Assembly: GCF_056746865.1 (NCBI RefSeq)
Contig: NZ_CM163382.1
Strand: one strand, 5' to 3'
DNA: 64,000 nt
This document shows, one piece after another, positions 26,078-32,023 of this stretch; the stretch's first letter is position 1; each line of letters begins with the position of its first letter. The notes beneath the pieces were generated by a model. That model had not been told where the DNA came from, did not search any database, and saw only the letters and a list, made by a program, of their open reading frames with translations. Both the position numbers and the translations under genes were made by a program.

Positions 26078-26890
26078 TCAGCACTCAACAAACTGATGCT
26101 GTTCATTAAGACGATAGCGGACTCCGGTTCGAATATTGTTTTCACCTTCAATGGCGACGGCGAAGCGAACTCTTTCGCCGTCATGATATGCCAGTGCGGC
26201 GCTTCCCCCTGGCCCGAGAATAATTGAGTCGACCACGCCCGTGCTCACTACCGTTGAATTTTCACCGCTGGCAATGATGTGTACATTGTCGCCGCTGTTG
26301 GCAATTCTGGCGTTTGCGCCAAAGCTGGCGATTTGCACCAGGTCACCATTACTGGCGACATGACATCGTTCACCCAATGTACAAACGCGTACTCGCATTC
26401 CAGTATTCGCAATCCGACTACTATCTCCAGCGCTGCTTATCCGCGAAGAATTACCGGTTACAGCAACCCGTGCGCGTTCACCGGAGCTGCCAATGTGACT
26501 GTTAAAGCCGACACTTCCAATCCGCACGCTATAACCCATACTGGCAATTTGCGCGGCATACCCAGCGGTTGCGATTCTGGCATTATCCTCACAACAGCCG
26601 ATGCGAGCGTGATCGTCGCTGCGGGCAAACTGACTGCAAAATGCTCTCTCTCCGGGATCTGTGGCCAGTTTTTGCATAGAAGAAACTTCCTGATGCGCGA
26701 AGTTTTCATCCGCCAGCCATTTTTTCCACGCATACTCAACCAGACTCTCCGCCCAGTCCGTATATCCTTCCTCAATCAGTGCATGATGAATATCGGCATA
26801 ACTACCGCCGCGTGGGAAATGGCGCAGGAACCAGCGATACATCACCGCTCCGATACGCCATTCTCGCAGGCCTGCTCGTGTAATGATCAT
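26078..26890 (-). CDS. ydhT: Uncharacterised protein, last gene of the ydhYVWXUT operon
   Basis: 270-aa ORF, recognised as YdhT. Confidence 0.85.
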   Translation of the reverse strand: MIITRAGLREWRIGAVMYRWFLRHFPRGGSYADIHHALIEEGYTDWAESLVEYAWKKWLADENFAHQEVSSMQKLATDPGERAFCSQFARSDDHARIGCCEDNARIATAGYAAQIASMGYSVRIGSVGFNSHIGSSGERARVAVTGNSSRISSAGDSSRIANTGMRVRVCTLGERCHVASNGDLVQIASFGANARIANSGDNVHIIASGENSTVVSTGVVDSIILGPGGSAALAYHDGERVRFAVAIEGENNIRTGVRYRLNEQHQFVEC

Positions 26891-26893
26891 TCG

Positions 26894-27679
26894 TTAGTGC
26901 CGGTGATAGCCATCGACCATGCTTTTAAAGGTTTCGTGTGGCGTACGCCCCGTGGTGCAAAGATAAAGATGACCGAAGATAAAAAAGAGGCTTATAAATG
27001 CCAGAGCAAAATGCGCCTGCAATAACCAGTATCTTACGCCAGGAAACACATCTCCCACGGCTTGCGGATAGAGACACAGCAGCCCCGTCAATAGTAACAA
27101 CGGCAGCAATCCAAACATGACACCAATATAGGCAACCTGCTGTAAGGGATTAAATTTAGACTGGGTTGTTGCCGGGAAAGGATGTTCTTCCCCCTGCATA
27201 ATGCCAAACAAATAAAATCGCGTTTGTTTTGCCGCTCGCTCCAGCCAACCCTGACGACGAATGCGATAGTGGTGACCATTACCCCCAACGGCATTGATCA
27301 GAACAAAGCCGAGCCAGCATGCCAGTAACAAAAATCCGCAAACTTCATGCAACGCAACCAGACTTTTAACCGCAGTTGCGCCCACCAGCGCAAAGTGATT
27401 TATCAGCCCACTTGCCAGCAACAATACAAAGAGTAACGCATTCGACCAGTGCCATAATCTGACCGCTTTGCTGTAAAGATAAATCTTCTCACCATGATCG
27501 GTGGCTGATTTCTTCACGCCACGAGCACGAAGCAAGGCATGCAGCCCCAGCACCAACCACATCCCAACCAGCAATAGTCCGGCAATGATCAACCACACCG
27601 GCCAAAATTCGGGAGTGAATTGTGGCACATAGTTCGCCAACTGGCTCTGAAACTGTTCAGCATGTTGCGACGGGTTCAT
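26894..27679 (-). CDS. ydhU: Integral membrane cytochrome b-like subunit (PhsC/NrfD-like)
   Basis: 261-aa hydrophobic ORF; 4-nt overlap with ydhX. Confidence 0.85.
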   Translation of the reverse strand: MNPSQHAEQFQSQLANYVPQFTPEFWPVWLIIAGLLLVGMWLVLGLHALLRARGVKKSATDHGEKIYLYSKAVRLWHWSNALLFVLLLASGLINHFALVGATAVKSLVALHEVCGFLLLACWLGFVLINAVGGNGHHYRIRRQGWLERAAKQTRFYLFGIMQGEEHPFPATTQSKFNPLQQVAYIGVMFGLLPLLLLTGLLCLYPQAVGDVFPGVRYWLLQAHFALAFISLFFIFGHLYLCTTGRTPHETFKSMVDGYHRH

Positions 27680-28344
27680 ACATTTTCCTTTTTAATCAAA
27701 TGTTGACCGAATCGGCGATACAGATGCGGTTTCCCGGCACCAGGTAGCTGATATTGATAGTATTTATTTTCCTGCAACCACGCCTGAATTTCTGGGCTAT
27801 CTTCGCGACCAAAGATCAATGCATGTTCCGGACAGGCGCTGACGCAAATGGGCGGAAAGCCTTTTGCCAGTCGGGACTCAGCGCAGAAATCACATTTATC
27901 TGCCACTTTAGTGACAGGGTTAAGGTAGCGAACCTGGTAAGGACAAGCGCCAATGCAATAACTGCAGCCGATGCACTGCGATTTTTCTACCCGCACGATC
28001 CCCTGCTCATCACGCCACGACGCCCCTGTCGGGCATACGTCGATGCAAGGAGCATCTTCACAGTGCTGGCATGACTGGCGAAAATAGTGATACTGCGTTT
28101 CGTTGTCGTTATCGGTGACTGGAATGTGTGCTATCGATAAACGGCTTCCCTGAGCGGGGACGTGGTTAGTTTTACGGCATGCGCGGGCGCAAATATTACA
28201 GCCATTGCACCGTGACTCGTCATGAATCATGGCATACCGAACTTTCTTTTCTTGCCTCGTGTTCGCTAACAGAGAAGACGCAGAACCAGTAAAAAAGATT
28301 ACTGTTCCCATCCCCAGAACAAATTTGCGTCGAGTGAAGGACAT
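27676..28344 (-). CDS. ydhX: Tat-exported 4Fe-4S ferredoxin-like protein
   Basis: Start chosen at internal ATG (MSFTRRKFVLGMG twin-arginine signal); multiple CxxCxxCxxxCP clusters; 222 aa. Confidence 0.85.
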   Translation of the reverse strand: MSFTRRKFVLGMGTVIFFTGSASSLLANTRQEKKVRYAMIHDESRCNGCNICARACRKTNHVPAQGSRLSIAHIPVTDNDNETQYHYFRQSCQHCEDAPCIDVCPTGASWRDEQGIVRVEKSQCIGCSYCIGACPYQVRYLNPVTKVADKCDFCAESRLAKGFPPICVSACPEHALIFGREDSPEIQAWLQENKYYQYQLPGAGKPHLYRRFGQHLIKKENV

Positions 28345-28407
28345 CTGATTATCCCCTAATGCAGTGGCTGCAACTGTCCACCCTATCCATGACATCTCCC
28401 TGAAATT

Positions 28408-31161: not shown

Positions 31162-31181
31162 GATTTTTTCCTTTGCAAGAT

Positions 31182-31808
31182 TCACACAGTAATATCTTTC
31201 CACTCGATAATTTTTAACGCCCCTGTTGGGCAGGCGTATGCGCATTCACCGCATAACACACATTTCGAGGATTTTTTACTTTCGGTATTTACGGTGGCCA
31301 TCATCCACGGGCATGCCGTAGTACAGGCGCTACAGCCAATACAACGTTTATGATCGACGGTAATACAGCCTTCTTTCTGCTGCCAGGTAATCGCACCAAT
31401 CGGGCAGACGTTCATGCATTGCGGCTCTTTGCATTGACGGCAGGTGTCCGCGGTATAGTTGAGATCGCCATACAGGCCGCCGCCAGAGCCAACCCCGTTG
31501 TCGCCAAAGAAATAATTGCGATGGATTTTGATACGGGAGAAGAATGTCCCTACTGAACCATCGTTGAAGTTGGTACAAGAGATTTCACAGCGGTGGCAAC
31601 CCGTGCATCGAGCACGTTGGGTCACCAGCACCCCTTTGGGTGTATTTATCAACCCTACTGTGCCGCTATCAATATCTTCCTGTTTGCAACCCAAAAGTGA
31701 CAGTAACGCAGGGGCAATTGTTAAACCAGCGAGGCCTTTTCCTGATATACGCAAGAATTCTAATCGCGTTAAGCCAATATCTAATAGTGGACGATCAACC
31801 GGGTTCAT
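31182..31808 (-). CDS. ydhY: 4Fe-4S ferredoxin-like protein
   Basis: 208-aa ORF with four Cys clusters (CxxCxxCxxxCP). Confidence 0.88.
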   Translation of the reverse strand: MNPVDRPLLDIGLTRLEFLRISGKGLAGLTIAPALLSLLGCKQEDIDSGTVGLINTPKGVLVTQRARCTGCHRCEISCTNFNDGSVGTFFSRIKIHRNYFFGDNGVGSGGGLYGDLNYTADTCRQCKEPQCMNVCPIGAITWQQKEGCITVDHKRCIGCSACTTACPWMMATVNTESKKSSKCVLCGECAYACPTGALKIIEWKDITV

Positions 31809-32009
31809 TTATTTCGCATCCTCTTCGCAAACACAGTGCTGACAATTCAGCAGACTGATATTAAGCATTCAACTAATACGCTGCTGACTCTGTCCCCAAC
31901 ACCAGATATTTTCCCTAACCCGATAGTGTATGAGAAAAGATTTAACGCTGATAAACTAATCCTTTATGGTTAGGAGAAAAAATAATGTGATTATTCTGGG
32001 CCCTTAACA

Positions 32010-32023
32010 TTGATCGTTATCAA
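32010..32023. promoter_or_regulatory. FNR-binding site upstream of ydhY
   Basis: TTGATCGTTATCAA matches the FNR consensus TTGAT-N4-ATCAA exactly, in the AT-rich ydhY-fumD intergenic region. Confidence 0.6.

Follow-up and report, generated by a model that had tools for sequence, protein, structure and literature searches.

We analysed a locus with the gene set, gene order and neighbours of ydhYVWXUT, the FNR-dependent operon of Escherichia coli K-12 (b1674-b1669). It lies at positions 26078-32023 of a 64 kb window (the whole stretch of DNA that was analysed, on contig NZ_CM163382.1), and it is bounded by the stop codon of ydhT and by the far edge of the FNR binding site upstream of ydhY. In both strains the flanks are the convergent ydhS on one side and fumD/ydhZ, ynhH and pykF on the other, and the FNR box is identical; the differences are strain-level sequence changes and a 1-nt indel in the 5' untranslated region (UTR). 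For the FNR site, Myers et al. refer to Partridge et al. 2008, whose title names NarL and NarP as repressors of the ydh operon. Myers et al. themselves list ydhYVWXUT with an FNR peak in chromatin immunoprecipitation sequencing (ChIP-seq), a site at -42.5 and FNR-dependent activation (PMC3688515). In vitro, the promoter is transcribed preferentially by sigma-S RNA polymerase (PMC3141248). Fur gives a ChIP peak there in vivo, and expression in a CFT073 fur mutant falls to 0.07 of the wild type (14-fold lower); since deletion of ryhB leaves this effect unchanged, Fur acts as a direct activator (PMC7157518).

Several described systems resemble parts of this locus. Firstly, the Class V tungsten/molybdenum oxidoreductase (WOR, clade 41) of Cetobacterium somerae, CsWOR41 LSW, consists of an orthologous Y-V-W trio with a signal-bearing small subunit and a V subunit 58-59% identical to YdhV; of 46 aldehydes, not one was oxidised by this subunit, CsWOR41L (PMC13328260). 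The Cetobacterium enzyme shows a preference for W and a canonical twin arginine (RR) on its small subunit and lacks X, U and T, whereas the E. coli system prefers Mo, has R-L at this position and possesses X-U-T. Secondly, BamB of the class II benzoyl-CoA reductase of Geobacter metallireducens (PDB 4Z3W) shares with YdhV the fold of the aldehyde:ferredoxin oxidoreductase (AOR) family, a [4Fe-4S] motif and a ferredoxin-like small-subunit partner. Both have a Cys 16-22 residues after the motif, which in BamB (Cys322) is a metal ligand. BamBC differs in being a cytoplasmic W enzyme that belongs to a soluble electron-bifurcating complex. Thirdly, in the thiosulfate reductase PhsABC of Salmonella, PhsC is the model that YdhU fits, and YdhU likewise pairs with a predicted exported four-cluster ferredoxin, but neither PhsA, the catalytic subunit with Mo-bis(molybdopterin guanine dinucleotide), nor PhsB is encoded in the ydh operon. 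Lastly, the promoter resembles the class II FNR promoters of nrfA, nirB, narK and dmsA in its perfect TTGAT-N4-ATCAA about 42 bp upstream of the start, its lack of a good -35 and its modulation by NarL/NarP; it differs in being centred at -42.5 instead of the commoner -41.5 and in its additional positive control by Fur.

Results

Identity and conservation of the locus

The open reading frame (ORF) listing and the RefSeq annotation of strain 118UI both place six co-directional minus-strand genes at 26078-31808 (Table 1). A first reading of this DNA, made from the letters alone (hereafter the sequence-only reading), had named them ydhYVWXUT, in agreement with that listing and with the RefSeq and K-12 annotations; the RefSeq gene names are ydhY, ydhV, ydhW, ydhX, phsC (= ydhU) and ydhT. 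From Y to T, the intergenic gaps measure 20, 3 (or 12), 63, -4 and 3 nt, the ydhX stop codon and the ydhU start sharing 4 nt, and such short or overlapping gaps fit a single transcription unit. Five of the six proteins match their NCBIfam equivalog models well over the cut-offs, the exception being YdhX. A 6.3 kb operon query was 100% identical to E. coli strain 118UI and to several other isolates. It was matched in 5425 of 5426 complete E. coli genomes, with a coverage of at least 80% in 5396; for most E. coli genomes, identity to the window is 95-99%. The locus is thus a core-genome operon of E. coli, annotated and published, and there is nothing new in its identification.

Table 1. Coordinates of the genes and promoter elements of the ydh locus (window numbering)
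Feature	Position	Strand	Description
ydhY	31182-31808	-	208 aa small subunit; four [4Fe-4S] motifs; signal-like N-terminus
ydhV	29059-31161	-	700 aa catalytic subunit, AOR/WOR family; C307-x2-C310-x3-C314 (+C558); invariant Cys336
ydhW	28408-29046 (or 29055)	-	acidic, predicted cytoplasmic; disordered N-terminus and two tandem winged-helix domains
ydhX	27676-28344	-	ferredoxin, four [4Fe-4S] motifs; predicted Tat export; starts MSFTRRKF
ydhU	26894-27679	-	PhsC-type cytochrome b membrane anchor (predicted); five hydrophobic segments; eight invariant His
ydhT	26078-26890	-	predicted cytoplasmic; N-terminal five-helix bundle, then beta-solenoid of 9-residue repeats
FNR binding site	32010-32023		perfect TTGAT-N4-ATCAA, TTGATCGTTATCAA; centre 32016.5
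Candidate -10 hexamer	31982-31987	-	CATTAT; its distance from the centre of the FNR box agrees with the published -42.5; block AATAAYCNCATTATTT conserved
5' UTR	31809-31974	-	about 166 nt; conserved Shine-Dalgarno region GAAGAGGATGCGAAATAA before the ATG
NarL/NarP-like 7-2-7 site	31957-31972		TAATCCTTTATGGTTA; covers +3 to +18; two mismatches to TACYYMT-NN-AKRRGTA
Fur-box-like sequence	32058-32076		GATATTTATTATCATTTGA; agrees with the Fur consensus at 14/19 positions; some 94 bp upstream of the inferred start

Distribution of the six genes

Mapping the six proteins onto 70 ydhV loci, sampled as one genome per species, separated the operon into layers. The trio Y-V-W is shared by Enterobacterales, Cetobacterium (Fusobacteria) and many Clostridia. 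Within this sample, X-U-T were limited to Enterobacterales (Escherichia, Citrobacter, Leminorella, Limnobaculum, Budvicia, Proteus, Serratia, Symbiopectobacterium and Brenneria). Y-V-W-X-U without T is carried by two additional contigs, one of them from Telmatospirillum; on another contig, whose small subunit is canonical, FAD- and FMN-binding genes take the place of X-U. Between E. coli and Proteus, identity descends from V (80%) and Y (78%) through X (68%) and U (61%) to W (42%) and T (34%). Judged by gene content, the core common to these phyla is Y-V-W, to which Proteobacteria have added X-U and Enterobacterales alone T.

A few genomes depart from this pattern. In Symbiopectobacterium 'North America', ydhT, ydhU and ydhX are frameshifted or degraded; the V, X and U matches in one Citrobacter amalonaticus assembly are broken into fragments, perhaps by assembly errors or because the genes are pseudogenes; and Citrobacter sp. 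NCU1 has two copies of the operon, one of them without a detectable ydhT.

YdhV, the catalytic subunit

The ydhV ORF extends further upstream than the annotated and conserved start, MANGWTG. YdhV matches both AFOR_N (PF02730, E = 2.5e-67) and AFOR_C (PF01314, E = 5.9e-48), and in sequence and profile searches of the PDB its N-terminal domain matches the solved structures of AOR, FOR and BamB (AOR/FOR E down to 1e-59). Its CxxCxxxC motif aligns with those of PfAOR and BamB, and C307, C310, C314, C558 and Cys336 are invariant in 21 orthologues (47-99% identity). With BamB, the N-terminal half alone aligns (E = 5e-62, residues 7-333), the Cys residues falling in different columns. Neither single-sequence nor profile comparison with the PDB gave a reliable alignment of the central catalytic region, and the equivalence of Cys336 with BamB Cys322 was not seen column for column. 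In a 2025 review, Cys336 is described as an extra metal ligand shared only with BamB (Cys322), in a clade without the second-shell residues of AOR (Glu313 and His448 in PfAOR) (PMC12096430). PfAOR Glu313 aligns with YdhV Gly332, in a low-confidence stretch of the profile alignment.

The sequence-only reading had called YdhV an aldehyde:ferredoxin oxidoreductase-family protein. The AFOR_N and AFOR_C matches uphold this as a family label, but not as an activity, given Cys336, the missing second-shell residues and the 46 aldehydes left unoxidised by the Cetobacterium orthologue: YdhV is probably not an aldehyde oxidiser. That reading had also proposed a metal analysis (W/Mo) of the purified protein, for which an answer is already published: according to Reschke 2019, as quoted in two later papers (PMC13328260, PMC9103625), purified YdhV binds bis-Mo-molybdopterin (bis-Mo-MPT), with Mo preferred over W. 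The E. coli protein was purified in inactive form.

YdhX and YdhU, the electron-transfer module

YdhY and YdhX each contain 16 Cys arranged as four ferredoxin motifs, as expected of the ferredoxin-like Fe-S proteins that they had been taken for. The YdhX signal, MSFTRRKFVLG...SLLA, is a canonical signal for twin-arginine translocation (Tat), and 44 of the 45 orthologues keep [ST]RR.FV, in line with the earlier assignment of such a signal. With this motif, an h-region and an AxA-like cleavage site, YdhX is predicted to be exported, and it is listed among predicted Tat substrates. Among characterised modules, NrfCD and HybA/HybB come nearest: YdhX scores best with NrfC (247 bits), also a four-cluster ferredoxin with a Tat signal, but stays below the NrfC equivalog cut-off (377.6), and its partner YdhU is predicted to be a haem b protein and not of the haem-free NrfD type.

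YdhU matches NF011582 (PhsC-type) at 457 bits (cut-off 204) and the cytochrome b family PF01292 at 105 bits (cut-off 30), as well as TIGR02125 and TIGR01583. Eight histidines (47, 77, 95, 111, 166, 223, 237 and 259) are invariant in 45 orthologues and are putative haem ligands. Of the earlier description of YdhU as a PhsC/NrfD-like anchor, the PhsC half is retained, through NF011582 and PF01292, while the NrfD half falls away: a Pfam scan returned PF01292 only and no NrfD match. By these family matches, YdhU is a cytochrome b of the PhsC/FdnI/HyaC type. Since neither phsA nor phsB is found in the operon or its neighbourhood, the RefSeq designation 'phsC, thiosulfate reductase cytochrome B subunit' is over-specific, and looks like an over-annotation from the equivalog model.

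The N-terminus of YdhY

The sequence-only reading was right in describing YdhY as an Fe-S protein but did not mention that its N-terminus is signal-like, with the motif L-T-R-L-E-F-L-R at residues 13-20 (31749-31772) and a lipobox-like LLGC at residues 38-41 (31686-31697). All 45 Enterobacterales loci with U show L-[TS]-R-L-[ED]-F-L-R, with Leu for the second Arg, whereas T/S-R-R-[EDQ]-F-L-K is found in all 20 loci that lack X-U and have a recognisable motif. The orthologues of Firmicutes and Fusobacteria have the canonical RR. Among database relatives, those at 60-76% identity have R-Q, R-K or R-L, and those at 57% or less have R-R. The other positions of the motif are conserved, as are the weakly hydrophobic h-region and the lipobox-like L-[LF]-G-C, and the strict conservation of the remaining motif indicates that selection still acts on it. 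Since the sequences with X-U all fall into a single clade, the Arg was probably lost in one evolutionary event. Its coincidence with the gain of X-U is a correlation, not proof of a mechanism. YdhY may carry a weak working Tat signal, be exported as a passenger of YdhX, or retain a remnant signal, in which case YdhVY would not leave the cytoplasm.

YdhW and YdhT

Neither YdhW nor YdhT has a signal peptide or a membrane segment. They match their own NCBIfam models only, and a sequence search against PDB chains gave nothing at E <= 1. YdhW has an isoelectric point of 4.4, and its predicted structure (predicted local distance difference test, pLDDT, 87) shows two tandem winged-helix domains behind an acidic, disordered N-terminus. 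The start conserved in all orthologues is the Met at 29046, also used in the RefSeq record of this strain (212 aa); the K-12-style start lies at 29055 (215 aa). The gene adjoins ydhYV in every phylum sampled.

The model of YdhT (pLDDT 92.5) consists of a five-helix bundle and a beta-solenoid of 9-residue repeats, the number of which differs among genera (263-340 aa). A profile search of 1.84 billion representatives found 1079 relatives, most of which share only the solenoid and the C-terminal part and have other N-termini; some carry DUF7666 or Macro domains. Relatives also match the phage families phrog_4433, phrog_27197 and phrog_18079, predicted phage protein structures match the YdhT model at E = 2e-8, and one relative (4080-4916 of its contig) stands beside terminase genes in a phage contig. 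The family being common in phages, YdhT is not a redox-specific component. Both proteins are most likely cytoplasmic assembly or accessory factors and not electron carriers.

The FNR box and the promoter

The FNR box is the sole TTGAT-N4-ATCAA in the 64 kb window. Shuffled windows are expected to hold 0.10 such matches and contained at least one in 10 of 100 shuffles; at this rate, the count by itself excludes chance only weakly. Conservation is more telling. In all 26 loci of Escherichia and Citrobacter that include the upstream DNA, neither half-site varies, whereas the spacer takes five forms (AACG, GACG, GATG, AATG and AGCG), which indicates selection on the half-sites only. The site has one mismatch in Leminorella and Limnobaculum, and none was recognisable in the upstream regions of Proteus, Serratia and Brenneria. 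The centre of the box lies 208.5 bp upstream of the ydhY ATG here and 207.5 bp in K-12, and the published ChIP-seq peak falls about 10-20 bp from the box or closer, by an approximate conversion between K-12 genome versions.

The exact FNR box that the sequence-only reading had placed at 32010-32023 is therefore confirmed as unique, conserved in its half-sites and identical in K-12. Its setting in an AT-rich leader is half correct: the intergenic region is 67% A+T, against 50% across the window, but the box precedes the transcription start (at -42.5 in K-12) as a class II promoter element and does not belong to a leader. The FNR dependence stated for K-12 agrees with published work, and the ChIP and expression experiments suggested as a check had already been carried out in K-12, with an outcome in favour (PMC3688515, and Partridge 2008 as cited therein). 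Given the box at -42.5, a start position taken from the literature, transcription would begin near 31974. The promoter has no good -35.

An alignment of twelve Escherichia and Citrobacter upstream regions revealed four conserved blocks besides the FNR box: the Fur-like box, the -10 region, a block just downstream of the start and about 40 nt before the ATG, including the ribosome-binding site. The third of these, CCTAACC.TAAAGGATTA, is nearly invariant in the two genera, and TAATCCTTTATGGTTA lies on its other strand. The NarL 7-2-7 pattern occurs three times in the window against 2.8 expected, which is not significant by count; the NarL/NarP-like site is proposed solely because of its position and conservation. 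The Fur-like box is situated some 50 bp upstream of the FNR site. No other block on that side of the site is as well conserved in Escherichia and Citrobacter, and within the window the box ranks in the top ten for agreement with the Fur consensus. It is in keeping with the published Fur ChIP peak and with the activation by Fur in CFT073 that does not depend on RyhB, as the block downstream of the start is with repression by NarL and NarP. By their resemblance to the consensus sequences, the NarL-like and Fur-like boxes may be the actual sites of these regulators.

Other observations concern the same region and its surroundings. A second sigma-70-like promoter match, ATGATA-17-TATAAT (10/12), lies at 32044-32072 (-), upstream of the FNR box and overlapping the Fur-like box. 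Its -10 is only loosely conserved in other species, and transcription from it, if any, would begin upstream of the FNR site. Within the window, the Fur consensus is matched most strongly some 10 kb away, at 41759-41783 (16 and 15/19) and 41898-41916 (14/19), probably, to judge from the K-12 gene order, in the sufA promoter. A hairpin at 31837-31852 had been flagged as terminator-like, but the 185-nt 5' region folds no better than shuffles (z = -0.85), and the idea of a riboswitch or attenuator was dropped; an Rfam scan of 25900-32800 at E <= 1 gave no match. At the other end of the operon, the stop codons of ydhS and ydhT converge only 11 bp apart (26067-26077), and a search of this junction and of the sequence after ydhT found no intrinsic terminator or inverted repeat for either gene. 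The small gene ynhH (32828-33022, +) is annotated just upstream of pykF both in the RefSeq record of this strain and in K-12.

Discussion

These results favour a single account of the locus, which we hold with high confidence as a whole: it is ydhYVWXUT, controlled by FNR, NarL/NarP and Fur, and it encodes a membrane-linked molybdoenzyme that most likely works as a reductase. At the promoter, a [4Fe-4S]-FNR dimer bound to TTGATCGTTATCAA and centred at -42.5, a position at which the K-12 literature shows binding, acts anaerobically as a class II activator of a weak promoter with the candidate -10 element CATTAT. In the presence of nitrate or nitrite, NarL and NarP repress, likely through the 7-2-7-like sequence just downstream of the start, and in iron-replete cells Fur activates, likely through the conserved Fur-like box. 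The products would form a respiratory-type enzyme, in which the catalytic pair, YdhV (Mo-bis-MPT, one [4Fe-4S] and the Cys336 ligand) and YdhY (four [4Fe-4S]), may be linked to the quinone pool by YdhX (four clusters) and YdhU (cytochrome b). Electrons would pass from menaquinol to the YdhU haems, then to YdhX, YdhY and the Mo centre of YdhV, which would reduce a low-priority, probably low-potential periplasmic acceptor; the proton motive force may help this flow, as in PhsC-anchored thiosulfate reductase. We infer the reductase direction and a periplasmic YdhVY, an orientation also proposed by others (PMC13328260, PMC4257093). Three arguments favour a reductase: firstly, the regulation is that of low-priority terminal reductases; secondly, the anchor is PhsC-like; thirdly, the metal centre is closer to that of BamB than to that of AOR.

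Several points weigh against this account. Hydrogenase 2, a donor enzyme, is also repressed by nitrate, so regulation is compatible with either direction of electron flow. For no member of the clade has a substrate or activity been published, and the direction thus rests on regulation and analogy only; the sequence-only reading had likewise stated that the substrate is unresolved, as the literature bears out. E. coli YdhY has R-L in place of a true twin-arginine pair, so that export of YdhVY is only putative, and Lys, not Asp, follows the lipobox Cys, a poor fit to an inner-membrane lipoprotein. The NarL and Fur sites are assigned by consensus resemblance and conservation, not by footprints. 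Finally, expression of ydh in K-12 was below detection in one study, and a ydhX mutant had no infection phenotype.

The most serious alternative, possible though clearly less probable, is the same complex run in reverse: YdhVY would oxidise a low-potential periplasmic donor and pass the electrons through YdhX and YdhU into the menaquinone pool, as a donor module like formate dehydrogenase N or hydrogenase 2 for fumarate, dimethyl sulfoxide or trimethylamine N-oxide respiration. The kinship of YdhU with the cytochromes b of the FdnI/HyaC family (PF01292; TIGR02125, TIGR01583) and the resemblance of YdhX to HybA and FdnH-type ferredoxins are compatible with this direction, and AOR-family enzymes are mostly oxidative. 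The Cetobacterium orthologue, however, did not oxidise aldehydes, the Cys-ligated metal centre is nearest to that of BamB and points to reductive chemistry, and the best match of the anchor is the PhsC model, that of a reductase.

We advance, as a speculative proposal and with less conviction than we grant to reversed flow, that the proteobacterial form of the enzyme uses an undescribed route of export and assembly. YdhVY might travel as a passenger of YdhX (three-protein hitch-hiking) or be held by an uncleaved degenerate signal anchor, YdhW might be a new dedicated maturation or proof-reading factor for Cys-ligated Mo/W-bis-MPT enzymes, and YdhT a late Enterobacterales add-on. It seems unlikely that YdhVY of Enterobacterales is not exported at all and that the single-Arg N-terminus of YdhY is a remnant Tat signal serving for chaperone binding or membrane docking, for which NarG provides a precedent. 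Catalysis would in that case occur at the cytoplasmic face, with YdhU and YdhX used for transmembrane electron transfer. The distribution of the motif agrees with such a loss of export, R-L being found in 45/45 Enterobacterales loci and Q, K or L in other proteobacterial relatives, against RR in 20/20 loci without X-U, and a remnant in use would keep the remaining motif strictly conserved, as it is. Yet R-K and R-Q pairs are partly functional in Tat signals, the lipobox-like LLGC and the Tat-type weakly hydrophobic h-region have been kept, and a periplasmic YdhX without a periplasmic catalytic partner would have no obvious role. The periplasmic orientation predicted in the two papers cited above (PMC13328260, PMC4257093) also speaks for export.

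It is very improbable that YdhV is a genuine broad-spectrum aldehyde:ferredoxin oxidoreductase that detoxifies aldehydes. The RefSeq product name, the strong AFOR_N/AFOR_C matches and the likeness of its N-terminal domain to solved AOR and FOR structures would suit such an enzyme, but the region of the catalytic domain aligns poorly to AORs, the invariant Cys336 has no counterpart in them and PfAOR Glu313 aligns to a Gly. Moreover, the second-shell residues are absent according to the review (PMC12096430), the orthologue was inactive on 46 aldehydes, and the membrane and Tat partners are atypical for AORs. A chance FNR match in A+T-rich DNA with no regulatory role, although one arises in 10/100 window shuffles, is already refuted by published ChIP-seq occupancy and FNR-dependent expression; half-sites that stay invariant across two genera while the spacer varies and the correct spacing to the candidate -10 element also speak against it.

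Re-identifying an annotated operon and a published FNR site brings its substrate no closer, and what the comparison adds (a Y-V-W core, the degeneracy of the Tat motif, the YdhW and YdhT folds, the Fur-like and NarL-like boxes) is incremental. The current obstacle is the lack of an active holoenzyme, and leads on topology and assembly such as these could help to obtain one. E. coli has no AOR-family enzyme other than the one encoded here, which is also the founding member of Class V WOR, a membrane-linked clade represented in many gut bacteria. If its substrate were found, one more respiratory or detoxification pathway would be known in the best-studied bacterium.

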